This document shows positions 15,338 through 48,216 of a stretch of 64,000 nt of DNA, piece by piece (the stretch's first letter is position 1; the number at the start of each line of letters is the position of its first letter). Under the pieces are notes generated by a model. The model ran no database searches. It worked only from the letters and a program-made list of their open reading frames with translations, and had not been told where the DNA came from. Position numbers and translations under genes: made by a program. Source of the stretch: Takakia lepidozioides (taxonomy: Eukaryota > Plantae > Bryophyta); assembly GCA_030704615.1 (NCBI GenBank), contig CM060734.1, positions 13,206,001 to 13,270,000 of the forward strand, written 5' to 3'.

Positions 15338-15420
15338 CACACAGCCATCACAGCCCACCACAGCCTATTACAGCATATCACAGCTTACCACAGTTTGTCA
15401 CAGTTTGTCACAGCCCACAC
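15338..15420 (+). repeat. Degenerate 10-bp tandem repeat (core CACAG) downstream of the integrase
   Basis: cacagccat cacagcccac cacagcctat tacagcatat cacagcttac cacagtttgt cacagtttgt cacagcccac. Confidence 0.8.
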
Positions 15421-18234: not shown

Positions 18235-18254
18235 GTGCAGAACATTGCCACAAC

Positions 18255-18911
18255 CCAGAAGCAAAGCTAAACTAATACCTCCAGTGGATGAGGAAGAAGA
18301 TGTTAATGAAGAATGGCAATGATGTGCCTGAAGATGATGAGGCTTGGAGAGATGAGAAGGAACTGCACAAGGAAGTGGTTGATACCATAAGGGAAATGCA
18401 GAAGGATATTGATATCCCTATGGCAGATTCTTCTGACTCTGAAGGAGAAGATGAAGAAGGTGAAGAGAAAGTGACGCAGGAGGCTTCACAAGTGCAGGGT
18501 AATGAAGGGACTTTGGCTGAAGTAATATGCCAGTCCAAAGCTGAGATTACCATTGGACAGCTATTGGCTGTGGCACCTCATTGTAGGCACAGGCTGTATC
18601 AAGCAATCAATCAGATTGCTCATGTGATAGAGAACATAGACCTGAGCAGCAAGGTAACAAGTTATAATGTGAAGCCTGAAGGGCGAGAAACTGTCATGGA
18701 CTTTGATGATTCTATGCCAGTAATCCAGTTGAGAATTGGAAGCACACACTTGACTGATGTACTCATAGATGGAGGCTCATGAGTGAATATTATGACAGAC
18801 AAATTAAGGCAAAAGCTTGGTCTAAGTAACATGAAACCAGCCCCATTCACAGTAACAATGGCAGATCACAGGAGTGTACAACCTTTAGGCTTAATAAGAG
18901 GAGTCAAGATA
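18255..18911 (+). mobile_element. Gypsy family A fragment: gag-pol linker and aspartic protease
   Basis: Near-identical to the reverse complement of ~60189-60843. Contains VLIDGGS (protease), followed by a stop. Confidence 0.9.
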
Positions 18912-20285
18912 GGGGGCTGCTATTTCATGAGCGGCATGAGCATGAGTGGAAAAAAAAAAAGCATGAGCGGACCATTGTGTGTCCACGGAAATAGGGTTAG
19001 GAGGCACGGAAATAGGGTCATGTGAAGTTGGAATGTGGCACCAGTGGACTCGTCATAGCAATGAAATGCAACATTTTATTGCTAGGCGAAGGCGAAGACA
19101 TGCCTGTCGGACAACGTCCCTGCCCACATTGAAGCACCTGAGGGACAAAGCGGGTGGTTAGTAGCATGCGGCATGCAATTGCAATCGGGCCAGGGGACAA
19201 AATGTGCACGTGAAGGCTTACACGTGCCGCATGTGAGGTCAAGAATCCACCCTTGGACATCCGAGCACGTCTCCATGAGGGTTTGGATGAAAGCAGGGCT
19301 CCGGGTCCGGCTGTACCGCCATGGTTTGCCTGTCTTTGTGTCTTCGGCATACTGGATTGGGGCACATAGTTGTAGAGGACATTGTAGGTAACAGGGTCCA
19401 CAGCGGCATCAACAAGACGACCGTCATTGCGGAATTTGAACGTAGACCCTCTCTTCACAAAACAATATGCCTCAAACACCAATGTCTGCACATCCAACAA
19501 AAGAGGGATCCATTCCAGGGTCTAGTTTAGATACACCACAATATGAAGTGAATGCAATAGATTGATAACTTACACTCTGGCCCTCTGTTCGCAACCCCTG
19601 CGTATTGATGCAGAACCATTTTTTCAGGAGGACCGGGGTGACACTTTTTGGTGTCCACCTTGCCAAACATTCTCTGTGGTCTTCCCTCTTGTGGCAAGGA
19701 CCACCATACATCCACCGTCATCCAGGAGCATCCCCGCCAACCCAAACCCGGCTCTCCAGTAGTCCTCCGTAAACCTGTTCCAGGTGGGCACACCATCCAG
19801 GCCCTCCAACAGCTCCCCATCTGGAATATCGAGGAGAATCATATCGCAGGCTCTCTCCACCTCAACCCCCCCCCCCCCCCCCCCCCCCCCGAGTGCTCTT
19901 GCAATCCGTGCTCACAGCCGTGAAGAATTCCATCATGGCTTCCAAACCAGGGGTGTCTTTAGGCTCTGTAGCAGCAGCCCTCTTCTTGGCTTTCCCCTTC
20001 AGCTCCTCCAGAGACTTGTTGTGTGCCACCTTCTTCGCCCTGGCAGCCAGAGCATCAAGAAAGCTCTCATTGACGCATTGGATGATAGTTGGGGATTCTA
20101 ACTTTGGCCTTTGCAGAAACATCACCGCCGAATACCGTCGTGTAGGCTCGCCCTCAAATGCCAACTTCTTGGCAGAGCCAGTCCCAGTCCGAACTGAGTG
20201 GGAACCCGGACGACCGGTGACTTGGTAGTAGCAGCAGCAGTCGCAGGACCTTGCACAAAGTCGTCGTCAGAGTCACTCCCTTGGG
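18912..20285 (-). mobile_element. Copy 2 of the amino-methyltransferase element (inverted), with both introns retained
   Basis: Reverse complement of ~60-1419. Contains DMILLDIPDG and ILDLTCGT, with frameshifts including an expanded poly-C run at ~19866-19890. Confidence 0.85.
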
Positions 20286-20955
20286 GACTGGGGTGCTTAT
20301 GCATACAAAGTCATGCCTTTTGGACTTTGTAATGCACCAGCAACTTTCCAGAGAGTGATAAGTGAATCTTTCCATGAGTATCTGGATGATTTCATGCAAG
20401 TGTTCTTAGATGACTTCAGTGTGTACAGTTCTAAGAATGAGCACTTGCAGAAGTTGGAGTTATGTCTGGCCAGATGCAGGATAAGAGGTCTTGATCTGAA
20501 TCCAGAAAAGTGTACTTTCTGTGTGAACTCAGGGGTACTACTGGGACACATTGTGTGTAAGAAGGGACTGCTTGTGGATCCTAGAAAGAGAGAGGCTATT
20601 AAAGCCTCACCACCACCAAGTAACGTTAAGGGTCTAAGGAGGTTCCTTGGACAAACTACTTATTATAGAAGGTTTGTCAGACAGTATGCACAAATGGCAG
20701 CTCCATTGAGCAAGCTTTTGAAGAAGGATGCAGTGTTTGCATGGACAGCTGAATGTCAACAGGCATTTGAAGCACTTACATTGTCAGTAACAACTACACC
20801 TGTGCTGATTAACCCTCACTGGCATGTAGTATTTCATGTACACTATGATGCCTCAGGAGAAGCATTGGGGGCTGTGTTAGCCCAAAATGTCACAGGAAAC
20901 ATAGATTCACCTGTGTACTATGCTAGCAGATTGTTGAACAGTGCTGAGAGGAACA
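20286..20955 (+). mobile_element. Gypsy family A fragment: RT C-half and start of RNase H
   Basis: MPFGLCNAPATFQR, VFLDDFSV, LRRFLGQTTYYRRFV, HYDASGEALGAVL. Confidence 0.9.
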
Positions 20956-21250
20956 CAGCCTCATGAGAAAGCTAGAGTTCGAAAGGGTAAGCGTGGTAGA
21001 GATAGGGGAGAAGAAGCATAGAAAGCACATCCTTGAGCTATGGCGGTGGCAAGGGCTAGAGATAAAGAGGGAGCTAGAATAGCGGAACCGCTACAGGGAG
21101 GGAAAAATGACACTATAGTGCATAAGAAATTGGCAGAAACCTAAGTCAGGAGGTTAGCAGGGGATTTAGCGGAAAGAAGCGCGGGAGAGCGGAGCTCCGC
21201 CCTCCCGCTTGCAGGACTACATTTGTTGTATTGATTACGGCTCTGCAAAC

Positions 21251-23784: not shown

Positions 23785-23968
23785 GATGGCGGTGGCAAAT
23801 ACATTTTGAAAATTAACAAAATGAACACGACCGCCAATTCGCTTTGTTTTTCGAAATTAAAAAAGAAATAACGACCACCGTATTGGCGGTCGCTTCAATT
23901 TTTATTTATTTTAAAGCAAAATTGGCGGTCGTTTTTTTTTCGAAATACAAAAAGAAATAGCGACCGTG
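23785..23968 (+). repeat. Detached piece of the hAT subterminal GCGACCGCC array
   Basis: Matches ~35620-35800 (CATTTTGAAAATTAACAAAATGAA...CGACCACCGTATTGGC). Confidence 0.8.
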
Positions 23969-24052
23969 TCGTGCGCATGCGTATCGCTACACAACTACAT
24001 CGCTGTCCAAACCACACCACACATATATGCACAATAAAGTAGTCTACCACTA

Positions 24053-24195
24053 TCCAATGCATTGTGGACATAACCAATCCCCATCCGGAACCATCTCAAG
24101 AGGTGGAGTCAAGTATCCCATATGACAACCTCTAGAGCATCGATCAAACACCAGCATGGTGGCTGCCCCTTTAGCAGACCCACACAACATGCACC
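24053..24195 (-). other. PHD finger at the integrase C-terminus
   Basis: CMLCGSAKGAATMLVFDRCSRGCHMGYLTPPLEMVPDGDWLCPQC: C4HC3 spacing and the PxGDWxCPxC signature, with two Cys positions mutated (F, Y). Confidence 0.85.
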
Positions 24196-25300
24196 TCAAA
24201 CTTGCAGCTACCACTGCCAGGTTTGGGTCAATCCTGCCATCGATATTCGGAAGGTGACATGGCGCACAATTACGCACATGGTCCTTCCAAGTTATGCCAT
24301 CCCGACCCTCCAAGACCAAGACGCCTGAGGGCAAGACCTCTCGAACCCTCAAAATAACACGTCCTACAGTCACATCCAAGGTCGTAGGAGCAGTCTGCTG
24401 CAGATAGACATAGTTACTAGGGTTGAATCTCCGAACCCCAGGACGATAGCCCCCACCACGTATGGTAGCATACATCAACGTATCACAGTGTTGTGCAATG
24501 GCAAGGTTCTCGAAAGCCATGGGCATGACTTTCTTGAACAACTCTGCACGCTGCTCACATGCACGTGCCCACACGTCCGGATCGTCAAGGTTAAGAAGTG
24601 TAGCAGCTTCCCTGCGAATGGATGTAGGCAAATCCGGCTCTCGGCCAAAGAGAAGAAAGTATGGTGAGAAGGAGGCAAGTGATGCTTGCTTGCTGAACCT
24701 GTAGCCCATGGCTAACCATGGTAATTGAAGGTCCCAATCTCCTAGGTATCCCTTCTGCAAGCTATACTTGCGCAAACCCCTCTTTACTGTCTGAACAACT
24801 CTCTCTGCCAAGCCATCGGCCTCAGGATGATCCCGGAAGTGGTGCGGTGGTCTATCAAGGCCTTGTCACACAAAGCCTGAAACTCCCCCAAGAACTCTCT
24901 CCCTTGGTCCGTGAGTACCTCAGCTGGAGCACCGAATCGGCTAAGCACACAATCCAAGAATGCATACGCAGCTCCCTCACTAGCCTTATCACGCAATGGA
25001 ACCAACTCAATCCACTTGGAAAAGTGCTCCACCATCACCAACATGTACTTGTTGTGACGCATGGTCAGTGGCAAATGGCCCTGCAAAGTCAAGACTCCAC
25101 CTGTAGCCCAATCCCATGATCGGAAGAGGGTGCAATTGTGGAGTAGGGGCGTTGAATGAAGCACGCACCCTATCACAGACCATGCACCTAGCCACAAATT
25201 GTTGCACCTCTGTGTGCATACCACGCCACTAATACTGCCCCTGAAGTAGACTATGAGTGCGTCGCACCCCAAAATGCCCCAACTCCTCATGGGCATGCCG
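24196..25300 (-). pseudogene. Gypsy family B integrase
   Basis: HAHEELGHFG...CMVC zinc finger, WSLDFAGP, VLTDQGREF, MAERVVQTVK. Frameshifted. Confidence 0.9.
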
Positions 25301-25699
25301 CACTAACCGTGCCCGCTGTGTTGGGTGAGGCACAATCCTCACTCGACCATCCTTCCACACTCGGAGCAGGTGTGTCCCCTCCCACTTGAACCTCTTGGCT
25401 CGTTGTAGGATCCGATCCCTCTCCTTGGCAGTCACAGTGGCTGCAGTGTCTCCAGTGCGGAGGTAGTCCAACACAACTGAATCCTCATGTATATCTTTGG
25501 CGCCACCTTGCTCATTGCTGGCCTCAGGGTCCTCAGACACTTGATCTACAGTCATCCCTGTTGCAGGTCCAACCTGGCCTTCCGCTGCCAAGATACACAG
25601 AAATGCAGATGCATGCCATCCGGACACCATCTCCTCGTCCGTCTCACCATGTCACCGAGCTCCAGTGTCATCCTGCTGGCTCGTGCATGGATTGCGACT

Positions 25700-27076
25700 C
25701 AACTCCATCATGCATTGCGACTCAACCATCTGCATTGCAATTGACCAAACCCGGTCGATGCACCACCTGAAAGTCATACTCTTAAAGGATGAGTGCCCAC
25801 CGTGCAAGCTTCTCCATAAGCGTGTCTGACTCCATCAACCACTTGAGTGGTTGGTGATCCGTGACAAGGGTGAAGAGATTGCCGTATAGATACTGAAGTG
25901 TGCCACGGCCCACACTGCAGCTAAGCATTCTCCCTCATATGAGCTATACTTAGACTCTGCAGCATTGTTTGAGCGGCTAGCATAAGCCACTACGAACTCT
26001 CTTCCCTCATCATCCACCTGTGTGAGCACCGCTCCAAGCCCCAGCATGCTCCAATCTGTCTGCAGCTGAAAAGGACGCCCCCTGATAGGTCATCTCAAGA
26101 TGGGCGCCAAAGTCAACCTCGCCTTGAGCTCTTGAAAAGCTTGTTCTTGCTCATCTTCCCACTGCCACTCCTAATCCACCTTGGTCAGCTTGGTTAGAGC
26201 CTTTGCAATGGCACTAAATCCCTTAACAAACCGTCTGTAATAGTTTGCTAACCCCATGAAAGCTCAAACTCGGCTCACATCCGTGGGGCGTGGAACCTGT
26301 GCAATGGACTCTACCTTAGTCTGCTGTACCCCCAATCCTCCAGGATATATCATGTGACCCAGATACTCAATCTGATTGTGGAAAAACTTGCACTTGCCCG
26401 GATGTAACTTCAATCCGTGCGTCCTCAAGCGCTCAAATACCCCCTGAAGGTGTCTCTCATGCTCCTCCACCGTAGCACTAAAGATGATGATGTCATCTAT
26501 GTAGCACCGAGCAAACTCCACCCCTGCTAGAATCCTGTCCATGACTCTTTGAAACTCAGCGGGGGCGTTTTTAAGCCCAAATAGTAAGAACCGCCACTGG
26601 TATAGGCAATCCTTCCCGTGCTCATTGATCCCCCAGAATGCCGTCTTTTGCTTATCCGCCTCCTTGATCGGCAACTGGTGATATCCGGATCGTAAATCCA
26701 ACGTGCTAAAGACCTTGGAATGCCCAATGGCATCAAAGATCTCCTCTGGTGTTGGCATGGCATACCTATCGGACTTGGTCTGACGATTTACAGGCCGGTA
26801 ATCACCGCACATACGTCTCTCCGTCCAATTGCCATAGACATCTTTCTTGGCTAGCATCACTGTGGCTGAAGCATACTCTCCACCATAGAGCTCCACCAAA
26901 CCAGCCTCCCAAAGGTCCTGAGTTCTCATCTGAATCAAGGACCTCTCCATGTCACTGTATCTATAGGGTCTCCAAAAGATTGGCGTGTCAGTAGCCAATT
27001 CAATGCGAATCTCTTGACCCTTCAGTGCTCCTAAGTCCTTCAAACTGAAGGCAAAGCAGTTCCTGTAAGCCCTCAA
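25700..27076 (-). pseudogene. Gypsy family B reverse transcriptase and RNase H
   Basis: RRMCGDYRPVN, FSTLDLRSGYHQ, FGLKNAPAEFQR, CYIDDII (RT). FQLQTDWSMLGLGAVL, SYEGECLAAVWAV (RNase H). Confidence 0.93.
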
Positions 27077-27509
27077 GAACCACCGTATACGTCGTCTCTC
27101 TCCTCCGGTGACTATAGGTCCAACATCAGGCTCCCAGTTGTCCTCCGTGACTGCAACCTTGAGTCTAGCAGGCTTAGAGGTAGAAGACGCGTCCCGTGGT
27201 TGCTATGCTGCAACCTCTTGAGCAGTGCTCCCTGCCTGCTCAGTCAATGACAAGGCCTCATCCTGCCCCATCATCTCATCCTTGAGGACCTCATCAACCC
27301 AAGAAGAATCCCCAACCTCATCCATCACAGCTGCCTTGGCTGCCAACTCCCTCTGAACCTCGAGCACCTCCCACGTGTGCCATGGATGTCTACACCCCGT
27401 GGTCCTCACCGGCTCGCCCCCACTCGCTGCCTGTACCATCTCGGTAGGCAGAGAGACTGTCAAGGGAAGTGCACTCCGCACTCTACATTGCTCAGCCATA
27501 GCCAAGCTG

Positions 27510-28450
27510 ATAATCCAGGTCAAGCAATTGAGATCCATTGCTTGCCCCAACACCTGACAACGTGATGCCTCAGAAAGAGAAGGCACCGCCGTGGTCCCAG
27601 TGGAAAAACCCATCGCCCGCTCGCGCTCGTTAGCATTGGGCTCCACTAATTGTTGCAATTGGCTATCCCACCAGAGGCCAGGTCCACCATTCCGAAAAGC
27701 ATGGGATCCTGGGAAGCTGAGCAGTGTAGGTAATGCTGCTCGTGGTTGATCCACCCTGTTGACCACTGCCAAATGCGAACGGTCATCGTGTCTCACACGT
27801 TGAGACTGCCTCCCTGTGTCCAAAATGCTATCCACTGTGAGGTGTGCTGGCCGCTGCACCCCATCAAATGCACGCTTGAGCAGTGCGGGTGGCATCAAGT
27901 TAGTCCACCATAGCCGTGGACGATGAGCCCATGACCCCACTGCAGCTGCATCTAGCAACACTGCTGACCCAAGCCATGACCGGACTTGATGCACACTGGC
28001 CATCACCCTGGCCCGAGAATCGCCCATCAGTGGCACATTCTCCAAGATGTATGTTGGAGATACAGCTTGATGAAGCTGCAAGTGGCGCAAAACCCGCACT
28101 ATCTCCCAAAACAGACCTGTCCTTGAGTCTCGCAATCCATTGCCATGCCCAGCTGATGAATGCCCTTGGCAGGGCCAACCTGCCACTACCAGATCAATGG
28201 AGCCAACCTGCTCCAAATCCTGCGCCCCCAACAACAAAATGTCTGCTGGCAAGGCTTGTTGGTATCCACGAACTGCAGACACTGGCAACAAAACAGGGTA
28301 CTGCTGTACCAACTGAGCCACATGGCGCAGTGAGACGCGTCGTGCAGTCTCATCCCTCTCCGCATACATGTAACGCCTTACCCGCGCACCTAGCAGCAGC
28401 CAATCCGGTGCTGATCCCGCCAAACAAGTCCAGAAGGCAAATGCCTTCAT
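27510..28450 (-). pseudogene. C5-cytosine DNA methyltransferase domain (DNMT3-like) inside the pol polyprotein
   Basis: Motif I LLDLFGGISTG, II RRYMYAERD, IV IDLVVAGWPCQGHS (catalytic PC), VI YILENV, VIII AHRPRLWWTN, IX ERERAMGF and X QVLGQAMD, all in canonical order. One frameshift just after motif I (~28390). Confidence 0.92.
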
Positions 28451-29948
28451 CCATATACTGCCACACAATAGGTGTGGTATCCAATGGTGACAACTGAGGT
28501 GGTCCTGGTGCAATACCCGCACTCTCCTCCTCTCCTGACGGTACAAAAGCCTCTACCCAGGCTTGTTGCACCCGTCGATCAGCAACCTGCTGCAAATCCT
28601 TGCTCGTACCCCACAATGGAGTGTGAGCAACCATGGCAGGCAACTCCGCCATACCATACATGTCATCCTGCTCTGCTGGAGGTGGCACATCCTCTGCATG
28701 GGCATTGCCTTCCAGCAACTCTCCAGGCCAACTAACTGCAGCTGTAAAGGCGGCTAGTATTGGCATCTTGCCCCGTTGGGTAGCCGCAATACCCCCAATG
28801 AATGTCACAGGGAGCTGTGCACGATGACCATCTCCTGACTGCCATCCAGGCCTGTAGGATGCTGACTCCTCCCAAAAGTCCAGGGTGAAGCCCATGGGAT
28901 ATAACACTACCCCACCAACAAGGACATCGTAAGAGACCGCGTCTGTCAAAATGGCCTTAGCTCGCATCACTGAGCCACCTACAGGATGATCTGCTTGTAG
29001 TCCAATGGCCAACTCACGCCGTGTCATGCCCCGAGCCTGCTCTGATCCTCCCAGAGATGTCTGTATCTGGAAAGGACAAGGCTCTATATCCGCCTCCATG
29101 AGGCCCAAACCTGCAATAGCAGCTCTGCCCAACATCAGTGGCTGAGCTCCCGAGTCCAACAAGACCCGTTGTGGCCGGTACTTCTTGCCTGCCGGTCCAC
29201 TCAAAGAGAAAATGTCATCCGGGTTGTCTAACAAGACAACTCCAGGTGTCACCATGGCGCGCTCAAAGGCTGGCCTAGCTGGCAGTTCTGTCAACCTGGC
29301 AACTGCAGCTTGCCATGGCGCAGCCGTGGCAGTCTTGACCCTCAAATCTGAGGATCCCTCTGCCACTACACCTTCCAGTAACTCCGCAGAAGATGAAGTG
29401 ACCTCCCCACTCTCACAGAGTGTTGCTGCTAGTCTGAACACTGCAGCTGGCCTTACCCCCAGCGTCGCAATCATGGTTGCCGAGAACAGTGGGGCTTGAC
29501 ACACAAAGGTGGCTGCCCCCAATAACACACCGGCTGCACTAGCCTTGGTAGCAGGTGTCAGTGCTGCACGTGTAGCTCTCCCCAATGGCATAGTAACCTC
29601 CGCCTCGGTAACAGTCGGGCGAGAACTAGGTGCCATGGATGGCGTCGACACAGTCTCCGCCAATGTGAATGACTGAGGAAGCCTCGCTTGACGGCTTGCC
29701 TCCCCACGCTGTAGATCCAATTCCACCTCTGCACCTCGTGGCTCAGGAACTCGTGCTGCTCCTCGAGTCACGGCTGCAGCAGACTCCACCTGCACTAGTG
29801 GTAGTGCTGCTCCGCACATGAATCCCATGCCTCCCATATCTCCTCCCTCAGGAGCAAGAGGTGGACCATCCCGCCTGGGAGCCGGTACCGCCTGAGCTAT
29901 AGCCATTGCAGCGAGCCTCTGCTCTAGCTGCTGAAGCCGGTTGGCCAT
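28451..29948 (-). pseudogene. Gypsy family B aspartic protease region, in frame with DNMT motif I
   Basis: RVLLDSGAQ and YDVLVG in ORF 28350-29948, which runs directly into GICLLDLFGGIST. Confidence 0.8.
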
Positions 29949-31202
29949 GCCTTGGTCAACACCCTGACCACCGCGTCCTTGGCCATGTTGAGCTTGCCCT
30001 TGGCCTGCACCTCGTGCCCGACCACCTCGTCCTCTCTGGGCTGGTCCACCTCACCCCCGGCCACCATTGTTCCCTTGGAACTGGCCTGGGCGCAACTCAG
30101 GATGCAAGTCATAACTCCATGCCCATACTTGCCACAATGCCCACACTGCAACTGTGCAGGGTGTGATTGTGCCGGTCTTCTGCCACTCTCTGGGCAATCT
30201 CTCTTGACATGGGGTCCTCCACATGTCCAACATATCACCCCTGGTTGCTGTTGGCCTGCAAAAGATGCCACGGGCCTCTTCACCTGAGGTCCCCTGTAAG
30301 CTCCATGGAACTTGGGTTGGGAAACCTTGCCCCCCTGACCACGCTGTTGGGTAGTCTCTTGTGCCTGTGGGCTAGCAGCTGCGCCTCGTGCAAGCATGTC
30401 CTTGCCAAATCCAATGGTAACAACTCGCTCCTCCACCATGTTGAGCTCAATCCGCTCAGCCAGCAGAAACACATCTGCTAATGTGGGTTGGGCTGCTTGT
30501 AACAGGGTTGCATCTCGCACCCTTCTCTTGAGCTCCTTGTCCAAAATTCCATACCAAAATAGATTTCCTGAGCTTCAGTAACCCCTTGGGTCACACTTAT
30601 CAAGCGCCTCATACGAGTGTACGCCTCTCGTAGCTCTCACTGGGTTTGCGCTGGAAGTCTTGCAAACTTCGCAGCTTCTCTGTCCGTACACCTTGGTAGT
30701 TCCTCCGCAACTCTTGGAAGAACTCCACCACCGGGTTGAATCTAGGCACATGTGTTGTAGTCGTGGCAGGAGGAGTAGCAGCACCTTTTGAACTGGTACC
30801 ACCTGCAGAAGTACCGGCACTACTTGCTCCACTACTAGTGCTGGCAGTGGGAGATATTGGTACTGATGCAGCTACTGGTCGCGTCGTGCCTCGAGTAATG
30901 GAGACGTAGTCAGGTGACCAATACATCCTCCACTCCTCAATTTCTGCTTCATGTCCTCGCCTGAACTCGTGGTAATCGTCCATAGGCGGGCCTTCCAAAT
31001 GCTGGAACAGTCCCTTCCACGCCATGAATGGGGTGAATAGCTGTGGATTGCGCATCTGCTGCAAATCACACCAGCTGTCGAACTCCTGGATAAAGTCATC
31101 CAACTCGATTGTGCCCATAGCTCCAGAGTACCTACGAGGCCCCTTGGTAGCTCCATACATCTCCTCCATGTCGTCCCACAACAATGGCGAATGAAACGGC
31201 AC
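29924..31202 (-). pseudogene. Gypsy family B gag with two zinc knuckles
   Basis: PRRYSG...LDDFIQEFDSWC (gag-like). CWTCGGPHVKRDC and CGHCGKYGHGVMTC knuckles. Confidence 0.75.
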
Positions 31203-31925
31203 ACCTGTTGATGAAGCCTCCGAGTCTCTGTCTGACTCTGCACTAGTTGAGGGTGGAGGTGAGGTGGTCTGAACCGAATACCTCGTCTCGTGAACCCACT
31301 CTCACTGTTACTGCATATAGCTGTACTCCCCTCAAAACCCTTGGGTAACTCCATGATGAAACTCACAATGTGCACCTCCCCCACGTGACACTATAGGGCT
31401 CTAGTACTGATTCTAATAGTGACACGGGTGAGCACCTGTTGCAGTTTAAGGGTCATATTCCAATGGCTCAGGGCACCTGCACCTGCATCCACCGCAAGAA
31501 CTCCTATGGTTGGCTGGTCATCAACCCAGCCTCACCATAGAAGAAACACTGGTGGTCTTGTTGGTCATCACTCCAGCCTTACCACCGACAGCATACTCTA
31601 GGATTGACCGGTGATCAAATCCGGCCTAATCCCTATGAAAGCAAGCGCCCACACAAAACCAACATGGCGCACAGTCAAGCATGCAGGTGTTGGGGGGGAT
31701 CCAAACACAAGAAATCAAAACATCAACACCCCCACACCAAAATCCAGCTGCAATGCTGATCCTGCAAAATATCCCAGCTTAAAACCCCGGACTGACTGGC
31801 CTCCACCAAGAGAGGCTTTGGCAACTACGAGTACAAGGTAATGAAAATAGTACAGAGATGGAGGGGAAGAATAGAAGCCCGCCCAAACAAGATCTAATCC
31901 TGATCTATGCTATCAACTGCCAGAC

Positions 31926-32600
31926 TTATCTCAAAGTGCCTCGCTCTGCATGATGGTAAGGTGTAGGAGGTATATCTATGTCCAGAAACCTGCCACTAAC
32001 CTTGTCCCAAGCTACAGTAGCTCGCTCTAACCAACCCTCCTCCTCTTTCTGCCAGGTAGAGACAAAGCAATACTCCCCTATCTCCCGCTCACTGAACACT
32101 AAAGAAAACAAAGGTAGGGTCTGATAGTCTCTCAACTCGAAAGCTTTGAGACAGTTGCGGGTGTCCTCATTGCGAATGACTGCATCTCCTTCAAGCAAAA
32201 CAAACTTGTCATTGCTAATGAACCCCCGCTCGTGGTTGCCTTGTGCAGAGCGTATCCGGCTGCAACCATGTCTGATTGCACAAACTTGTGCAGCTCCTGC
32301 TCCTCTGCTCCAGTACACCACGGCCTTGTGGCTGAACACCTTGGTCCCTGGGGCTGTCTTTGGTTGTGTTCCAAGCCTAGCTTTCACCCACTTTGGTATT
32401 TCACCTACAGCTGTAGAACTGCTGGCTCCAACAGAGTTCTGACTATCCAAAGCAACATTGAGGCCCTCAACGCCAACTACAGCAGTTTGTTGTCTACTGC
32501 TAATGCCTGACTCCCAGTATGCAATCAACTCATCCAACTGTTCTCCACTCAAATCAGTCTGAGTTCCTTGGGAAACATAAATCCGTCCCCTTGTGTGCAC
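31926..32600 (-). CDS. Uncharacterised 224-aa ORF upstream of the family B gag
   Basis: Uninterrupted ORF on the same strand as gag-pol. No recognised domain. Confidence 0.4.
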   Translation of the reverse strand: MHTRGRIYVSQGTQTDLSGEQLDELIAYWESGISSRQQTAVVGVEGLNVALDSQNSVGASSSTAVGEIPKWVKARLGTQPKTAPGTKVFSHKAVVYWSRGAGAAQVCAIRHGCSRIRSAQGNHERGFISNDKFVLLEGDAVIRNEDTRNCLKAFELRDYQTLPLFSLVFSEREIGEYCFVSTWQKEEEGWLERATVAWDKVSGRFLDIDIPPTPYHHAERGTLR

Positions 32601-35439
32601 AGGCTAAGAGACGAGACCTGCCCTTCAATTACGTCCTCATTTCCCCCAGCTATACAAGGAGAACATCCACAAATTTGTCTCTCATATAGACCAGAACAGG
32701 TTCTAGAAACAAAATTGTGGATCTTTCATGGCACACTCACACTCTAAAAATTCCATAGATTTTTAGTAGAGTCCCAAAAACAAAAACCAAGTCTAGATAG
32801 GTAGATATCCCCTTTCTATAGCTATCCCCTCAAGAACTGAGTCAAACGGAGCTCATTTGACAAAGATATGACCAACCAGGCTCTTTAAACATAACACATT
32901 TTTTTTTTCTTTTTTTTTCTTTTTTTTTATATAAGACAAAACAAATACAAGGAAAACTCTATTTTCAATACTTGTCTTGGTTCCCTGTTCCCTGGTTTCT
33001 TGTTCCTTGGTTCCCAGTGACTGGCTCTCCTCCAGTCGGGATCCGTAGCTATGCTGAGCCTTAATCCTTTGCACCAATATTCCCAACAAAAGCAGGAACA
33101 CTTATAATGCAACCCCGGAAAGCACCAGATCGGAAATATCTGATCGGGCTCAGCACTATAGTGCCAGGGGCACATAAACCAGATTGTAGGAGCAGCCAGA
33201 GGAAATGCAGGTTATGCCAGCATCATCCAGACCATCCCTGCATCTTGGATATGCATCCTCCAGCAAGGGCCGTTGCCTCCATTGCCCGACACTTGGTTAC
33301 ATGCTCAGCCAAACCTAATCAGGTCATTTCCGTGACAGATTTCAGCGGCATTCAAATCACTGGCCTCGCTATGCACTGCTGCCCTCAATCAAACATCCTG
33401 CAAAGCTGGCTGTCTTTCTCTGGCAGATCGCAAATAGAATTCTAAAGGTAGGGCGTTGGCTTCAATTCACCCGTGCACTGCTCTGCACATGCTGCTCGCT
33501 TGGGGTTTCAGAATCCCTGGAACACTACCTACTGCAATGCAACATACCTTCAAAAATCTGACCCAAGATTCACTGGCTGCTCGAACACTGGCATGACCAA
33601 ACCTCTTTAACTCCAATCAGCCTGCTACTGAATTACGATCCCAATGCCCAGTTGAGCTGCCAGTCTCGCATTCACTGTCCCCACCAAGGCAACTGCATGA
33701 ATACTATGAATACCATCACAGCTCTCATCTTTCACTCTAACCGGTTGGATGAGTACGGCCTTGAGGTCTGGTCAAGGCCACCAACTGCACCCGGGTTGTC
33801 CCAGTTTTCTGTTGCCCAGTTCGGGTCACCTTGCTGATCGTTGGTGTTTTCAGACGGGTTTATCCCATACACCAGGCAAAGGGATAATCAGGAAAGTCTG
33901 GAGTTCAGAAGCTGATAGAGCTCATATTCCTGCACCAATTAAATGAATGTGGTATCTCGCACTAAGACTCCCAGGACCAGCACCTGTGCAGAAGTAAGTA
34001 CCCTTGACGCCGAAATGACAGTAGAGGCAAGTGATCAGTTGGAAGTGTTCAATGATGAGACAAGTAGAGCTGGAGCTCCCTTGACCTGTATCGCCACAAT
34101 CCTGCACCAAGTTAGGAGGACTTGTGAGGACTTGGTCTTAAAGGAAGAACTTATCTTTCAACAATCAGAACCATTGGCGGGACGGAGGAGCAGTGTCAGA
34201 TATATGGTGACAAATTTGGACTCGGGCAGTGTGCTGAGTTGAAAGCTGGGTTGTGAACCACCATTCGACTTTCCACCAGTTTCCACCTCAAAATGGTGGA
34301 ACCAAGGTGCAAGGTAGCAATAGCTACTTGGCTTTGTACAAACCTGAAGCACTTAAAAACGACTTTGCACCTTGCACTCCCCGAAATCAACAATGCCCCC
34401 AACAACCTTTTTTGTCAGGAAGCTGGTTGCTTATGCAGATAATCGACCAGGTGAAAGTAGCTTTCCCAGCCACAATCACAAGTAGCATGAAGATTTGTGA
34501 GACTCCTGGTTTTGCAGTGTTGATGATATGCCAGCAATGGGCTCCCCGTTCTCCATCGCTTTGCTGCTAGGCTTTCTCTCTCGGGGCCTTCACCTTCAAC
34601 CAGCTCGCTGCACCGTGCTCTACCTGCTGGCGCTGCATTTACTGAAGGGGGCGGATTTATAGCTCCTCCTTCAACTGGCTCCACTACACCAGCTCCACCT
34701 GCTCTTCCGCTGCCTTTCCTGACCGCTTCTAGTCTGTGCACATCGAACTAAGGCGAGCAGCCCGGCCATCTCCAGGCACGGAAGTTCTATCCATCTGCTC
34801 GATCACAGGTACCCTTTTAAGTCTCGCACTTGGTCAGTTTCCCAACGGCCAATCGCTGCTACTCCATGATGTCTCATCACTGACCAAAACGAAGGCTGCT
34901 TCCATGCAGTGTAGCTCCGTCCTGCCCGGCGGCCTCATGCCAGAACCAACGCTGATCGAAACCTGCATATTTTGTTTTTATTTTTATTTTTAAGCTTCTT
35001 AAACTAAGCACTACTCTCACACAGGTAATCATACAAGTGCTAACCCTCAACTCCTACCTTGCACTCACAGGTAAGAGCTCATCTCTCTCGAGTGATAGAA
35101 CAAGCTAAGAGACACACTGTTCACACCAGAAACAACATGAAATCCATCGCTATCACTCGTTAAAATAGAAGTCGAGCCAAGGGCACCCCAAGCTATGGGG
35201 ACTCCACCCCACAACAACCTATACTCCCATCATAAGCACACTCAGTCCTAAACGATGCAGGAGCTCGGTCGTGCAGGCTCAACTCGAGAGAGACGAGCTG
35301 CGCGACTGACGCTCTCGTGAAGATAAGACGGTTCAGGTATCAAACTAAACTTGACACCTGATTTAACACTTGACCTAAATCCAAGTGTTAAATATAAATA
35401 ACTAGCTTTATTCTAGTTTCACACTGTGCTTATTTAACT

Positions 35440-36425
35440 TGACAACCGCCATATTGGCGGTCGCTTCAAATGTTTTTTTTTTAAAAGCAAGATTGGCGGT
35501 TGCACTGGCGGTCGCCTTATTTTTCGAATTAAAAAAAAAAATAGCGACCGCTATGTTGGCGGTCGCTTCAATTTATTTTATAAAAAATACAAGATTGGCG
35601 GGCGTATTGGCGGTCGCACGGTGGCAAACACATTTTTGAAAATTAACAAAATGAATGCGACCGCCAATTATGGTGGTCGCTTTGTTTTTCAAAATTAAAA
35701 AAGAAATAGCGACCACCGTATTGGCAATCGCTTCAATTTTTTCTTTTAAAGCAAGATTGGCGGTCGCACCGGCGGTCGCTTTATTTTTTGAAATAGAAAA
35801 AGAAATAGAGACCGCCATATTGGCGGTCGCTTCAAATGTTTTTTTTTTAAAAGCAAGATTGGCGGTCGCCTTATTTTTCGAATTAAAAAAACAAATAGCG
35901 ACCGCTATGTTGGCGGTCGCTTCAATTTATTTTAAAAAAAAATACAAGATTGGCGGGCGTATTGGCGGTCGCCTAATTTAAAAAAGAAAACAAGCGACTG
36001 CCGTATTGGTGGTCGCACAATTTTGTAAATATGTACAGAACAAGCGACCGCCATATGGCGGTCGGATAAAATATTAAAAAAAAACAGAGACCGCCATTGG
36101 GCGGTCGCTTAATTTAAAAAATATATAGAAAAACCAACGACCGCCATAAAATATAAAGATTAAAAGCGACCGCCTTACTGGCGGTCGCGTTTTTTTTTTA
36201 ATATTAAAAAAAAACGACCACTTTATTGGTAGTCGCTTTATTTTAAATATATTAACAAATGAAGCGACCGCCATACGGGCGGTCGCTTAAATTTAAAAAT
36301 ATGCAAAATAGAAGTGACCGCAATATTGTACAAAATGAAAGGAAATAAAAGCGACCGCAGTAGTGGCGGTTGCTTGTTTTTCATTATAAAAAAAAATAGT
36401 GACCATAATATTAGCGGTCGCTTAA
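35440..36425. repeat. Left subterminal hairpin array
   Basis: Repeated GCGACCGCC / GGCGGTCGC units separated by A/T tracts. Confidence 0.9.
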
Positions 36426-36850
36426 TTTCAAAATTACAACAAATATGGTTGTACAGCCTTTTTCGGGTGGGCGCTATTGGTTCGTCATTTATTCATTTCA
36501 CTTTCATTTCACTTTCATTCCTCTTGGATTATATATAAGAGAGGAGGGTCACCAAGCTCCTCACTTCTTTTGGCGCAAACACTTGAGGTTGCTTTGGATG
36601 TTCTCTTCCATTGAATGAGAGTGTAGTCCAAGAGAATGGTGCGCACTTTTTGCCGTTGTGTCTTCCACCAAAGTCACTTCAGCAGATTGTGTATAAGCTC
36701 AACACTATAACCCACATCGATCCACTTGGGTTGCTGACAGGTGTAGAAGTGTTGGGCTATCGCATTGCACTCTACATTCACAACACGTTCATTTATAGGT
36801 GACTGTTTTTTGTTGCTTGCATCGCTAGGTCCCAGGGGAGTGGATATTGG

Positions 36851-38782
36851 GTGAAGATGAGGGAGGAATGGAACCCTTGGTATACGGCAATCCCGAACAC
36901 TGTCAGTGCCACTGGTAGTGTTGAGTGCAACCTATGTGGATTAAAGCTTTCTTATCGTAAGGATCGGTTGCTCACTCACCTCGGCTATAAAGGTGTGAAG
37001 AGCACTGGGGTGGGTTTATGCCCCAAAGCATCTATGTGGGTAAAAAGCCACTTTGTCCAGTGTGGAGGCAATATTCCAATGTCTTTGGCTCTGGACATGA
37101 CCTCTGAGCAGAACATTCCATCTTCCCGTCAGGATGCCCCGATTAGTACCCAGGGCGACTCTTGTGAGGGTTCGAGTGTCCTTGGACCAGTGGGTTGTGT
37201 CGGAGCAACACCTGCTTCAACACCTCTTCGTACCCCTACACTTCAACGGAGTAGAGGATTACGGCAGCAATCCATGCAAGAAGGTCTTAACTTGTCTGCG
37301 AAAAGACAGTTGGATAAAAAATGGGCGCAGTTTTTCTTCGAGGCCAACATACCATTTAATGTGGCAAGGCTTCCGACATTTGTTTTTGCCGTTATAGCAA
37401 CCTCGGAGTCCAGATCCATGTACGTGCCTCCGACTTATCACAATCTCCGCATAGGATTGTTAGAAGACGTCATGACCGAGCTTACCCAAAAGGTCAACGA
37501 TAGGACGGGCGAGTGCATCAAAAAATATGGAAGCATTATATGTGCCGATGGTTGGAGTTCTGTCACAAACAGACCGTTGTTCAATGTCATGTTCGTATGT
37601 CCAGCTGGGGAACAATTCTTGGGATCGGTTGACACTAGCGGCGAGAAGAAAGATGGACGTTATCAATGCCAACTATTGACGGACTTCATCGAACAGGTCG
37701 GAAGTGATAGAATCGTGCAAATATGCACAGACAATGCCGCTAACATGAGAAACACTGCAGACATGTTGTTGGCACGTTATCCCCATATGTACTATCAAGG
37801 TTGTGCTGCTCATATCCTTGACCTCCTTTTGGAAGATTGGGGAAAAGAACAGTGGGTGAAACAACTTGTCAAGCGAGCGAAGACTGTTGTGTCGTTCATC
37901 CGCACACACTACATCCCTTTGGCAATATATAGGAGGCACGAACCCAAATACAGCCTCCGCAATCTAGGCGAAACTCGTTTTGCCACTAACTTCTTGATGG
38001 TGGATCGGTTGGTGACGGTGAAGAGCAGTCTGGAGCACACCATCATCGATCCTCAATGGGATGCGTACACATGGACATTGCAAGACTCCAGAAAAGCCAA
38101 GTCATTGGGCAAAAGTCGAAAAGTTCGAAATAGCATTCGCAGTGATGATTTCTGGAAGAAATGTGAAAACTTTGTTTATATGGTTGAGCCGGTGTTAATC
38201 GTCTTGCGGGAGTTTGATGGAAAGCAACCAGTAATGGGCAAGACATGGTTACTAATGCAAAATCTTGAGAAGCACGTCCAATCCTTGAGGCATCATCTCT
38301 TCTCCTTGGAACCTGAACTTGCGGACAATGCTGAGGATGCATTTTACGACCGTCGTTCGATGGTTCGAACGGACTTGCATTATGCGTAGGTTTTGCTCAA
38401 TCCATTCTTGCTCGACAATACCATGCTCTGAGACGACGCTGATGCCAAGGCCGGCCTCGTGCGAGTGCTCATGCGACTGGCTCCGCCGAACCATGAAGAG
38501 AGAGCTATATCCGAATACCAATGCTTCTCAGATCGCCGCGACCTTTTTGAGGACATGTCGGATCCAAAAGAGCTCAATATGCTGCCACATGAATGGTGGG
38601 ATCTGATTGGAGCTGGAGCAAGAACATTGGCTCCCATTGTGAAGCGTATTCTTGCTCAAGTGTGCTCTGCCTCATTTTGCGAACGCAATTGGAGCAGTTA
38701 CTCATTTGTTCACAACAAGATTTGCAACAAGTTGAATCCCGCGAAGGCTGACAAATTGGTGTATATGTATACTAATTGTTGA
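36851..38782 (+). pseudogene. hAT transposase (BED-like finger, DUF659-type core, hATC dimerisation domain)
   Basis: ECNLC...LLTHL...LCPK; FFEANIPFNVA; ICADGWS; QICTDNAANM; CAAHILDL; ETRFAT; HEWWDLIG...CSASFCERNWS. In-frame stops at ~38389 and ~38431. Confidence 0.92.
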
Positions 38783-42628: not shown

Positions 42629-42984
42629 AGTTGTGACGACTTGCCAGTCGTCGCAGGCAAATTTGGGCCACGCTGGCATGGCGGATGAGGATCAGAAGTC
42701 GCCGAAACCACTGCGGGTTTGGCGCCGATCTATACATCGATTTCCAAAAAATAAGAAAATAGATATTTTTAATATTATGGTAAATTGGAGTTGTTTTAAC
42801 GACTGCGGGTTGGACCCCCCCCCCGGGACATTTTTATTAATTGTAACCTATATGGCATTATTTCTTAACTATAATGACAGGCGTCGATTTTCTATAGAGT
42901 AAAGGAGACTCACACTCCTTCGTAAGTCGCGGTGAGTGGGCTGAGGACTTAGCGAGATCGCGACCCCCAGGTTAGGTTTGCAAG

Positions 42985-44242
42985 GTGCGTGCAAGCCTGG
43001 CAGTGCTGGATAAGGGCAAGGAAATCCATGGGGACATTGTCAAAGCTGGAATTTTAGCAGATGTCATTCTGAATAGTACCCTGGTGGACATGTATGCTAA
43101 ATGTGGGTGCATTGATGATGCAAAGGGAGTGTTCGACCTAATGGCTGAACGAAATGTGGTGTCTTGGAGCGGAATGATTGCAGGATATGCACAACGTGGG
43201 TGCGGGATGGAGGCTTTGGAGACCTATGAGCAAATGGTGTGGGAAGGGGTGAAGCCCGCGTGTGCAAGCCTAGCAGCCCTAGAAAAGGGCAAAGAGGTCC
43301 ATGGTGACATCATCAAAGTGGGAATTGAACCAGATATTGTTCTGAACAATACCCTCGTGGACATGTATGCCAATTGTGGGTGCATCGAGGATGCAAAGGG
43401 AGTGTTCAACAATATGACTGAAGGAGATGTGGTGTCTTGTAACGCCATGATTGCAAGATATGCACAGCTTGGGCGCGGGATGGAGGCTCGGCCCTGAGAT
43501 GCATACTAAATTCTGTAAGTTAGCTCGTTGGCTTCTGAAAGAGGATCAAGAGAGGGAGTGACTGTCCATAATGCCTCTTCTGCCTCTTCTGGGCATGTGA
43601 AGATGCTTTGTGAGGTAGGCAGATTGAAAGAGGCTCTACAGACTTTAAACCAAGGAACATTTCAGCAAATTCAGATATGTATGTGGTATGATGCTTTGGA
43701 TGAGCAAATGATGCACGAAGGGGTGAAGCTGAACCAAATCACGATTGTTTGTGTTTGCAATGCGTGTGCAAGCCTGGGAGCCCTAGAAAAAGGGAAAGAG
43801 GTCCATGGTGACATCTACAAAGCTAGAAGTGTACCAGATTTCATTCTGAACACAGCCCTGGTGGACATGTATGCCAAATGTGGGTGCATTGAGGATGCAA
43901 AGGGAGTTTTCAACACTATGGCTGATCGAGATGTGGTGTCGTGGAACGTGATGCTTGCAGGGTATGCACAACAAGTATGGAGGCTTTGAGACCTATGATC
44001 ACATGATGGGGGAAGGGGTGAAGCCCGACCACATAACATTTGTGTGCATTTGTAATGCTTGTGTAAGCCTGGCAGCGCTAGAAAAGGGCAAAGAGGTGCA
44101 TGGAGACATCATCAAAGCTGGAATTGTACCAAACATCATTCTGAACACTGCCCTGGCAACTCTGGAAGAGAACAAAGAGGTCCATGGCAACATCGTCAGA
44201 GCTGGATATTGTCACGTGCTCTTCTTCATGCAGTTCATTTGA
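42985..44242 (+). pseudogene. PLS-class pentatricopeptide repeat fragments
   Basis: Repeated GKEVHGDIIKAG...LNxxLVDMYAKCGCIEDAKGVFxxMxxRxVVSWxxMIAGYAQ...EGVKP. Three broken ORFs, with no E/DYW domain visible. Confidence 0.88.
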
Positions 44243-47109: not shown

Positions 47110-47790
47110 AAACTCAGGTGTGGCCTGAACTTTAGAGCTTCTAGCTTGAGCTCCCATTGCTAGAATGCACAAAAAGGCAGATGTATGCCATCCCGGCACC
47201 ATCTCCTCATCTGTCTCACCATGCCACCGAGCCCCAGTATCATCGTGCTCGCTCGTGCATGGATTACGACTCAACCCATCTACATCCTGATTGACTATAC
47301 CGGCTCGATGCACCACCTAGAAGTCATACTTTTGAAGCATAAGTGCCCACCGTGCAAGCTTCCCTGTAAGCTTGTCTGACTCCATCAACCACTTCAATGG
47401 TTGGTGATCCGTGACAAGGGTGAAGAGATTGCCGTAGAGGTAGCATCTAAAATGTGCCACTGCCCATACTATAGCTAGACACTCCCATTCATAGTAACTA
47501 TACTTCGCCTCGATACCATTATTTGAGCGGCTAACATATGCCACCACAAATTCTCTTCCCTCATCATCCACCTGTGTAAGCACTGCTCCAATCCCCAACA
47601 TACTCCAATACGTATGTAGCTGGAAAGGCCGCCCCCAAATAGGCCGCCTCCTTGAGTTCCTCAAAGGCTTCCTCCTGCTCCTCCTCCCACTGCCACTCCT
47701 GACCCACCTTAGTCAACTTGGTAAGAGCTTTGGCAATGCTGCTAAATCCCTTGACAAACCGTCGATAGTAGTTTGTCAACCCCATGAAAG
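47110..47790 (-). mobile_element. Second fragment of Gypsy family B (RNase H region)
   Basis: LGIGAVLTQVDDEGREFVVAY, TDHQPLKWLM and HRAGIVNQDVDGLSRNP; homologous to ~25590-26262. Confidence 0.88.
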
Positions 47791-48216
47791 CACAAAATTG
47801 GCCATACAAAGCAGCCCACATGAGAACATGTCAGAAAAACCTGAAATTTTCAGTGCAGGTGTCTTACCTGGCAGGGTACAAGATTCTGGTTTGTCTCATC
47901 TCAAAAAAATTCATAGCTGGGAAATTCGATAAGAAAAGCTGTGTTTTTTACCCCATTGTAAATAGGAAATTTGTTTTTGGCCCAACTTTCAACATTATAA
48001 TCTTGCAATCCGGCGGTTCGATTTGGACCAGACTTTTTGTGGTCATAGCTGGGGTAGGAACATATTACAACGGTCAGTTTTACACGGCCTGAGGAAATCT
48101 CAATATAGAAATTATTTAGTGGGGAAGGGTCAAGTTTTTGGGAGTGGACCCAAAAATTGGGGTTAGTCCTTTAGGGGTTAACAGATATGGAGGGAACATT
48201 TATGGAGGGTACACTG
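47790..48216 (-). mobile_element. Possible Tc1/mariner-type terminus
   Basis: The minus strand reads TA|CAGTGTACCCTCC at 48216. No partner TIR or transposase seen. Confidence 0.3.

Follow-up and report, generated by a model that had tools for sequence, protein, structure and literature searches.

The window, a 64,000-nucleotide stretch of the Takakia lepidozioides assembly, contains a retrotransposon copy with a DNMT3-type cytosine methyltransferase domain (DNMT) between protease and reverse transcriptase. We consider it fairly probable, with clear room for doubt, that this copy represents an abundant Gypsy-order family of seedless land plants whose first ORF encodes Gag-PR-DNMT3, whose second part (RT-RH-IN-PHD) is likely expressed by readthrough, and whose circular cDNA likely integrates. 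A bolder version is held only tentatively, at somewhat below an even chance: an ancient green-plant lineage with a DDE integrase and thousands of copies in the host, an obligate 2-LTR circle opened inside the LTR, and an active DNMT3 at capsid stoichiometry that methylates the episome before insertion. That the enzyme is active, that the stop is read through and that a circle integrates are what we infer from the sequences. The overall reading of the initial annotation, a Ty3/Gypsy element carrying a DNMT3-like domain, is upheld in part; it made no mention of the PHD finger, of terminal repeats that are split, or of a signature of self-priming.

Structure of the element

The copy in the window is dead and decayed. 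It spans positions 23967-35444, with TG...CA ends and a 4-bp target duplication (Table 1); the extent of 24050 to 31202 first assigned to it was too short. The element was inserted into a subterminal array of GCGACCGCC repeats that belongs to a hAT transposon (repeat family D3, hAT ORF present). The domain order Gag-PR-RT-RH-IN of Ty3/Gypsy elements (Metaviridae) is present, as are a DDE integrase, TG...CA termini and a target duplication within the 4-6 bp of that group. Two complete, identical end LTRs are absent: the ends are formed by two different parts, A and B, of a split repeat, giving the layout A-coding-B. Repeat B is 77% identical over 70 nt to the B of two relatives (L057 and L058) and directly follows the pol stop, and the 3' UTR and PPT of this copy appear to be deleted. 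The window protease alone has no Pfam match and was placed by alignment. The extra 5' ORF is missing from all 80 related loci, has no Pfam or PDB match and gives a poor predicted fold (pLDDT 47).

Outside the element, the fragments of a PPR gene have a median identity of 58% to Diphasiastrum, 48% to Ginkgo and Cryptomeria, 47% to Calypogeia and 42% to Adiantum, a comparison of one broken gene among the best 120 of 2412 matches, which include no hornwort, Selaginella, Isoetes or named moss. Taken by itself, this best match to the clubmoss Diphasiastrum would point to a vascular plant, likely a lycophyte, as host. A SAM-domain gene has an ESM Atlas match only at the level of 'Streptophyta'.

Table 1. 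Features of the element and its surroundings (positions within the window; strand given where assigned).
Feature	Position	Strand	Basis and remarks
Left target-site duplication (ACCG)	23963..23966	.	duplication flanking element
Repeat B, 3' terminus, sense end CACGACA	23967..24050	-	read joints, loose end at 24047
Integrase: H2C2, rve core, C-terminal part	24050..25540	-	Pfam rve (2.9e-12); frameshifts near 24835, 25075
PHD finger, integrase end	about 24059-24193	-	Pfam PHD (1.2e-06)
RNase H, frameshifted	25725..26090	-	Pfam RT_RNaseH (2.2e-20)
Reverse transcriptase, opens second ORF	26264..27202	-	Pfam RVT_1 (1.7e-31), ORF, motif YIDD 26492-26503
In-frame stop TAG CAA CCA (TAG itself 27203-27205)	27197..27205	-	fits UAG-CAR-YYA readthrough consensus (PMC3542737)
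DNMT3-type C5-cytosine methyltransferase domain: motif I, PCQ, ENV, RxR, motifs IX-X	27470..28445	-	Pfam DNA_methylase (PF00145, 1.9e-12), PDB profile; LDLFGGI 28413-28433, GWPCQG 28163-28180, ILENV 28034-28048, AHRPRLWWTN 27899-27928, ERERAMGF 27605-27628, LGQAM 27536-27550
Aspartic protease	28812..29312	-	alignment with P0089, which carries Asp_protease_2; LLDSGA 29145-29162
Gag, two Cys/His knuckle-like motifs (30215-30232, 30119-30145)	30050..31169	-	frameshifts near 30630, 30560, 30100-29950
Extra 5' ORF, 225 aa	31929..32603	-	high-copy in host (read depth)
Lower-copy insert in 5' leader, about 2.1 kb, with LINE zf-RVT remnant	32950..35075	.	
Putative self-priming site, directly after A	35075..35092	-	complementary to 35282-35299 inside A
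Repeat A, 5' terminus, 352 bp; sense start TGTCA, end CA	35093..35444	-	repeat comparison
Right target-site duplication (ACCG)	35445..35448	.	duplication flanking element
PPR gene fragments, outside element	42976..43989	+	similarity search
Related-subfamily fragment, RT end and RNase H only	47165..47802	-	77% nt identity, no DNMT

The methyltransferase domain

A motif search recovers every motif named in the initial annotation, on the minus strand and in the order it gave. The protease ORF (28350-30050) does run into motif I, as had been described; the motif series said to be complete has all its members, but a frameshift near 28390 parts motif I from motifs IV-X. A Pfam search places PF00145 between protease and RT and also finds RVT_1 and rve.

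The DNMT3-type assignment agrees with the PDB profile search, in which DNMT3A ranks first (2.7e-21), ahead of DRM2-type enzymes (2e-10) and HhaI/HaeIII (2e-7), with DNMT3A/B as the best matches. The domain of an intact relative is predicted to fold with a pLDDT of 93.9, and a fold search with it returns DNMT3A/B first (E 1e-19, TM about 0.7). Motifs I-X are in unpermuted order, unlike DRM. In similarity and in predicted fold, DNMT3 is thus the closest type, ahead of DRM, DNMT2 and bacterial enzymes; an ESM Atlas search returned generic DNA-methylase clusters. The catalytic Cys is retained in 51 of 54 loci and the Glu of ENV in 52 of 54. The domain of the relatives is under purifying selection, with a dN/dS of 0.10-0.13 among L050, L053 and L055. 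Recent dead moss-like copies have pairwise values of 0.4-1.9, in line with expectation after insertion and uninformative.

The domain is integral to the family and not a later insertion, as had been proposed: it occupies the same position in relatives, and read depth in the host (run X1) is equal for DNMT (0.85-1.07 M) and for RT and IN (0.91-1.23 M).

A conserved stop codon between methyltransferase and reverse transcriptase

A TAG or TAA stop followed by CAR separates Gag-PR-DNMT from RT-RH-IN-PHD, in frame, in 53 of 61 sequences (TAG-CAR in 41, TAA-CAA in 12); the remaining eight have no such stop. In relative L050, ORFs of 1369 and 1047 aa are both open and are parted only by TAG CAG TTA. 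Judged across these sequences, the TAG of the window is a feature of the family and not a product of decay. The exact CAR-YYA context occurs in only 5 of the 61 sequences, and the commonest context among moss-like loci, CAA-CCC, is one base off the consensus. We regard the conserved stop as likely to be leaky, that is, prone to readthrough. It is not universal, since relatives such as P0231 have DNMT and RT in a single ORF. The earlier description of the domain as built into pol therefore needs qualification: the domain is integral, but it forms the last part of a Gag-PR-DNMT ORF that terminates in a conserved stop, so that the phrase is true only of a readthrough product.

Split terminal repeats and a putative self-priming site

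Complete relatives have the layout A-coding-PPT-B-NN-A-B (A-coding-B-A-B in L040, L065, L073 and L077). In all six complete loci (five distinct insertions), as in the window, the element runs from TG-A to B-CA between 4-bp duplications. All seven full-length internal A copies are preceded by B plus 2 nt, compared with none of 19 5' A copies. B begins immediately after the G-rich PPT, and A stops immediately before the primer site. The join between the second A and the second B (A2-B2) is precise in six of seven full-length cases; L065 has 19 extra nt there. Reads of the host contain both the A-B joint and the B-2nt-A joint. Despite a DDE-type integrase, the layout of the complete relatives suggests a 2-LTR circle that was cut open at GACA-NN-TGTC, an internal site. 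Where A meets B in L057 and L058, an insert resembling the primer site was considered as a circle remnant; an internal deletion explains it equally well, and it is therefore not counted as evidence for circles.

The primer site of the window can form 18 pairs with the interior of A, 17 of them Watson-Crick. Such pairing is found with three different sequences (18 pairs in the window, 23 in L040, 15 in L050), while shuffled sequences give about 6 on average; at least 15 uninterrupted pairs occur in only 8 of 21 5' A copies. The primer site and its complement in A form a putative self-priming signature.

Copy number and distribution

The initial annotation had cited a second fragment as proof that the family is multi-copy. 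This fragment (47165-47802) holds no DNMT and hence cannot prove that several copies of the DNMT exist; the read depths provide that proof. The land-plant host proposed there is supported. The order protease-DNMT-RT also occurs in proteins of liverworts (Marchantia, Calypogeia) and Sphagnum and in peat-moss-like metagenome loci. Many of the related loci are one insertion seen in different assemblies, so that locus counts overstate independence. A pattern search of limited reach found no relative among viral contigs. Such elements were stated in 2019 to be absent from vascular plants (PMC6338049). A literature search, with most subscription papers outside its scope, found nothing that describes this family from land plants, its stop codon or any integration of circles by it.

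Proposed replication cycle

The RNA would start inside repeat A and prime its own reverse transcription. Most ribosomes would halt after the DNMT, so that production and packaging of the enzyme would keep pace with Gag, and the protease would then free it. Two-jump reverse transcription from primer site and PPT would yield linear DNA with B-NN-A at each end, and joining of these ends a 2-LTR circle. The DDE integrase would then cut the internal GACA-NN-TGTC, producing TG/CA ends, a 4-bp duplication and the layout A-coding-B-NN-A-B; the form seen in the window, A-coding-B, would come from 1-LTR circles or from B-by-B recombination at a later time. Before or during insertion, the newly made cDNA or circle would likely be methylated by the DNMT.

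Alternative explanations

The conserved stop might be a true terminator, with pol expressed by splicing, reinitiation or a subgenomic RNA. The 12 sequences with TAA instead of TAG and the frequent C as last base of the consensus would fit this, but CARYYA can stimulate readthrough of UAA as well (PMC3542737), the ORFs on either side share a frame, the following codon is CAA or CAG in four divergent families, and neither the window nor L050 has an AUG close downstream; we rate a terminator as quite improbable. Only slightly better placed, and still unlikely, is a rebuilding of the split repeats by template switching as in DIRS/Ngaro elements. Here the transcript would continue as far as the last B, and the internal B-A junction would be the template from which the two ends are recopied, with the integrase still acting on the rebuilt junction but no host end-joining of linear cDNA. 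The A1-B1-A2-B2 layout is described as typical of the tyrosine-recombinase elements PAT, Ngaro and VIPER (PMC6681497), and the mostly exact A2-B2 join would agree with such copying. Against it, A2-B2 links exactly the base that precedes the primer site with the one that follows the PPT, like a 2-LTR circle junction, the extra nucleotides in L065 are what end-joining would leave, and a Pfam search found no tyrosine recombinase, the integrase being of rve type.

Returning to circle integration with methylation of the cDNA, its last step faces the most substantial competitor, still a minority prospect: the anatomy is as described, but the DNMT serves non-catalytic DNA or RNA binding, RNA methylation, or trans action directed at host chromatin or at competing elements. 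A structural or trans role, too, would agree with expression at Gag level. The domain of Klebsormidium KnitGypsy-Dnmt3 produced no methylation in yeast, a result its authors call inconclusive, whereas SymbioDIRS DNMT3 domains are reported to methylate CG de novo (PMC5890265); the conservation of the catalytic motifs under purifying selection likewise argues for catalysis. CpG depletion is not supported as a mark of self-methylation: it is weaker in the element (o/e 0.49) than in two DNMT-less Gypsy elements of the same window (0.14 and 0.29), and the lack of excess CpG loss counts towards a role other than cDNA methylation. That a host gene or second element landed by chance in this single copy has a practically negligible probability; the frameshift just after motif I would be compatible with it, but it is refuted by the shared position of the intronless DNMT in Marchantia, Calypogeia and Sphagnum proteins and metagenome loci and by the equal read depths.

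Implications

With these findings, the known range of DNMT3-bearing retrotransposons comes to include land plants. Counts of host DNMT genes are affected, since several PF00145 'genes' in the annotations of Marchantia, Calypogeia and Sphagnum are in fact such elements. Programs that look for two LTRs would miss elements with split ends, and a large repeat fraction may thus be mis-annotated. The layout offers a natural test of a DDE integrase using circles as its normal substrate. Since the stop codon predicts the methyltransferase dose per particle, the purpose of the DNMT, left open in 2018, becomes testable. If an obligate circle and a packed, active DNMT3 were true, the family would be a natural LTR element that integrates obligately from circles and brings along a methylation step.

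Comparison with known systems

We class the family as a land-plant variant of KnitGypsy-Dnmt3 of Klebsormidium nitens (de Mendoza 2018), the Klebsormidium elements being compared by description only. According to the main text of that study (PMC5890265), both share the Gypsy domain set, an intronless DNMT3-type domain under purifying selection, and DIRS-like split A-coding-B-A-B repeats, seen here in relatives and host read joints. The family described here differs in its land-plant host and far higher abundance; KnitGypsy-Dnmt3 is described with DNMT, RT and RNase H in one ORF, whereas here the DNMT ends the Gag-PR-DNMT ORF before a stop (53/61). That main text does not describe self-priming, a boundary between PPT and B, an NN junction or target duplications, all of which are noted here. 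SymbioDIRS-Dnmt3 and PAT/Ngaro/VIPER elements are likewise described with A-coding-B-A-B repeats, and SymbioDIRS with a DNMT3, but they integrate by a tyrosine recombinase (PMC5890265; PMC6681497), for which the Pfam search covered both window and relatives; in the present family the integrase is of rve type, accompanied by H2C2 and PHD, and 4-bp duplications flank the TG...CA ends.

Tcn1 and Tf1-Sushi chromoviruses, present in mosses and clubmosses, share a predicted self-priming instead of a tRNA primer, but are described with ordinary LTRs and a chromodomain, and the available text mentions no DNMT (PMC6317226); here, no Chromo Pfam match follows the integrase in window or relatives, and a PHD finger takes that place. 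Gypsy-7a_cRei of Chlamydomonas also joins a PHD finger to a Gypsy polyprotein, with near-ordinary LTRs and no DNMT among the domains listed in the available text (10.1101/2022.06.16.496473). EpiLTRs are LTR elements that also combine a cytosine DNMT with a chromatin reader, but their DNMT is reported as DNMT4-related, with DAM and a chromodomain, in Cymbomonas and Euglena (10.64898/2026.05.21.726589). Troyka, with CG...CG termini and a 3-bp duplication (PMC12440569), was rejected as a match to the TG...CA and 4 bp found here. The foamy-virus integrase acting on 2-LTR circle junctions is a further DDE integrase reported to cut a palindromic junction internally (PMC1180852); there, cleavage takes place where the two LTRs meet, and ordinary ends are restored, whereas the cut proposed here would lie inside the LTR, and the circle would be obligatory.

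Domain content and relatives of the element

The DNMT3-bearing feature is real and is a variant of the KnitGypsy-Dnmt3 kind known from Klebsormidium nitens. All motifs of the initial annotation are present in the order given there, on the minus strand, and Pfam matches cover the methyltransferase (DNA_methylase, 1.9e-12), reverse transcriptase (RVT_1), RT_RNaseH, integrase (rve) and a C-terminal PHD finger, with Integrase_H2C2 matched under the curated cut-off. A Pfam search with the protease alone gave no match; the segment is alignable to a relative that does have a protease match. The window copy is dead: its frameshifts affect gag, RNase H and integrase, and another lies directly behind motif I of the DNMT.

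The methyltransferase domain is DNMT3-type, as proposed initially: PDB profile ranking, predicted fold and unpermuted motif order all agree. The window fragment matches human DNMT3A first (7.4e-7), and a 36-sequence profile ranks DNMT3A (2.7e-21) before DRM2-type enzymes (2e-10), HaeIII and HhaI (2e-7) and DNMT2 (5e-5). The fold predicted for the intact domain of L050, a related metagenome locus, has a pLDDT of 93.9 and a Foldseek list headed by DNMT3A/B/C. Among 54 related loci in which a single segment spans 80% or more of the domain, the catalytic Cys is kept in 51 and the Glu of ENV in 52. Between L050, L053 and L055, dN/dS of the DNMT is 0.10-0.13 (286 codons); RT and integrase, present in a single pair, give 0.06 and 0.03. 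Median pN/pS between the window and the 54 loci, with synonymous sites close to saturation, is 0.30 for the DNMT, similar to RT (0.25).

The domain is integral to the family and not a later insertion, as relatives have the order gag-PR-DNMT-RT-RH-IN in common and DNMT depth matches that of RT. This order is found, to each contig's limit, in the best 80 of 162 metagenome matches; these loci are probably moss-like, since most have an ORF end in common with named Sphagnum proteins. Homologues occur in Calypogeia, Marchantia, Riccia and Sphagnum (73 and 31 matches in two protein searches), and proteins of Marchantia align successively with gag, protease and DNMT. In a quick tree of 80 DNMT domains the window lies inside a liverwort and moss clade (SH-aLRT 100) and outside the liverwort/moss subclade (SH-aLRT 97), a position compatible with vertical descent but no proof of it. 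In the host sequencing run X1 summed contig depth, which is not copy number, reaches 0.62-1.23 million for the coding part and 0.85-1.07 million for the DNMT; exactly matching flanking contigs have a depth of 67-83. We take this to mean no more than that copies number in the thousands and that DNMT and RT are equally common, in keeping with the multi-copy claim.

Five annotated hypothetical genes of Marchantia (Mp8g17980, Mp4g09160, Mp6g11220, Mp2g26090, Mp8g15430), most with PF00145, match the element polyprotein; such element-derived gene models could inflate host DNMT counts. The extra 5' ORF of the window element is high-copy and specific to this host's family; it is without matches and its predicted fold is poor.

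A stop codon between DNMT and RT

The domain had been described as built into pol. It does lie between protease and RT, but a conserved in-frame stop (TAG CAA CCA in the window) places it on the Gag side. Among 61 junctions (the window and the 60 of 80 loci with DNMT end and RT start at most 700 nt apart), 41 have TAG-CAR, 12 TAA-CAA and 8 neither. In L050, Gag-PR-DNMT (1369 aa) and RT-RH-IN-PHD (1047 aa) each form an uninterrupted ORF, and only TAG CAG TTA lies between them. The tobamovirus readthrough consensus is UAG-CAR-YYA (PMC3542737); five of the 61 junctions match it exactly, spread over three divergent families, and the main moss-like family has CAA-CCC after the stop. From this layout we infer that the methyltransferase would be made at capsid level, with RT and integrase produced only via readthrough. 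The stop is absent from the related protein P0231, a single ORF.

Packaging of the DNMT at Gag level would be in keeping with methylation of the element's cDNA while this lingers as an episome, but in yeast the Klebsormidium domain gave no methylation (PMC5890265), and CpG o/e of the window element, 0.49, is not below that of its DNMT-less Gypsy neighbours, which belong to another family and are strongly CpG-depleted.

A second architecture, RT-RH-DNMT-IN-PHD (P0098, P0099, P0101, P0102, P0236), is found in the chlorophyte Hariotina reticulata and in proteins that group with it; related DNMT3-Gypsy elements thus extend to non-streptophyte green algae, where the domain sits elsewhere in the order.

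Split terminal repeats, priming and integration

In sense direction the window element runs from TG to CA with ACCG on either side, and its insertion point falls among the arrayed repeats of a hAT transposon. Its two ends, compared with each other, have no long repeat in common. In contigs of the same host the 3' end (B) and the 5' end (A) are joined as A-B and also as B-A, one of these joints having two intervening letters. Complete relatives (L040, L065, L073, L077) account for this, as they carry A1-coding-B1-NN-A2-B2, NN being two variable bases. Four-base duplications surround TG-A...B-CA in 6/6 complete loci (5 insertions). B plus two bases precede A in all seven full-length internal copies and in 0/19 5' copies. 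At the junction stands GACA-NN-TGTC, which the divergent L050 and L055 share, and B1 begins immediately 3' of a G-rich tract (15 such B copies, five leading into A and ten into flank). At some B-NN-A junctions the perfect palindrome extends further (L040 near 10344, L064 near 16587; e.g. CATGACAGCTGTCATG), as would be expected of a symmetric integrase site.

Judged by eye, the sequence 3' of A1 does not resemble a tRNA primer site. It is complementary to a stretch within A, the window giving 18 pairs, L050 15 and six moss-like copies 16-23 (shuffled controls: mean about 6, maxima 8-16), and the paired sequence differs in each family. At least 15 uninterrupted pairs are found in 8/21 copies; several have a TATA motif 30-31 nt before the paired segment.

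Given this primer site after A and a polypurine tract ahead of B, the product of standard two-jump reverse transcription would be a linear DNA whose two ends both carry B-NN-A. Were it trimmed and inserted, target duplications would surround B...A; none was seen among the loci analysed. If the linear ends were joined into a circle, the last base ahead of the primer site would abut the first base past the tract, which is exactly the A2-B2 join, and cutting after CA on both strands of one NN site would produce A-coding-B-NN-A-B. A one-repeat circle would give A-coding-B, a form that B-by-B recombination would also yield. The first strand jump would need an A at the 3' end, which is retained in the long form alone, so the circle would be obligatory. 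We infer from these sequences that the family probably integrates by way of a circle. Among transposases, those of IS3/IS30 act on circle junctions that contain short spacers. Cutting of 2-LTR junctions is reported for foamy-virus integrase (PMC1180852). DIRS-like recopying of both ends from the internal junction, for which PMC6681497 offers a matching repeat layout, appears an unlikely source of the same arrangement.

Other features of the window

Coordinates of features in the window
Feature	Position	Strand	Remarks
DNMT3-bearing element	23967-35444	-	TG at 35444, CA at 23967
A (5' end)	35093-35444
B (3' end)	23967-24050
Extra 5' ORF	31929-32603	-
DNMT-less Gypsy	14283-20966	+	CpG o/e 0.29
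DNMT-less Gypsy	58686-62850	-	CpG o/e 0.14
hAT transposon	35445-41000		long GCGACCGCC subterminal arrays; DUF659 and dimerisation domain, 36803-38779
hAT left array, far side	23790-23966		array split by retroelement
PPR fragment	42976-43494
LINE-like	10193-13335		RNase H match 12322-13335; common segment 10992-11154
LINE-like	45145-46226		chromodomain 45145-45663; common segment 45323-45485
1.4 kb repeat	59-1419; 18912-20286		98-99% identical, inverted; short further piece near 58700
SAM-domain gene	51749-52996	+	intronless-looking, internal duplication
RING-H2 gene	5837-6403	-

The best 120 of 2412 matches to the PPR fragment consist of Diphasiastrum complanatum (67), Gb_ identifiers (22), which we take to be Ginkgo, Cryptomeria (12), Adiantum (5), Ceratopteris (1), Calypogeia (1) and others (12), with none from hornworts, Isoetes or Selaginella. 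Median identity in these 120 reaches 58% with Diphasiastrum, against 40-48% in the remaining groups; a second PPR fragment ranks alike. Taken by itself, this one broken gene would suggest a lycophyte close to Lycopodiaceae as the likely host, whereas the DNA comes from the moss Takakia lepidozioides. The additional domains of the LINE-like elements are an unusual set for a LINE. The 1.4 kb repeat is probably a young non-autonomous element.

Comparison with known elements

Passages of a 2026 preprint mention just 'streptophytes (Gypsy-DNMT3)'. New are the high abundance in this host, the predicted readthrough layout and the putative circle-permuted, self-primed ends; a literature search covering few subscription papers found none of the three in print. 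Self-priming, known for Tf1/Sushi elements and predicted for Tcn1 (PMC6317226), is likewise predicted here from sequence signature. In the Klebsormidium elements, too, Gypsy domains are accompanied by repeats arranged as in DIRS, for which the main text gives no mechanism; these elements have DNMT, RT and RNase H in one ORF (PMC5890265), whereas in the present family a stop divides DNMT from RT.
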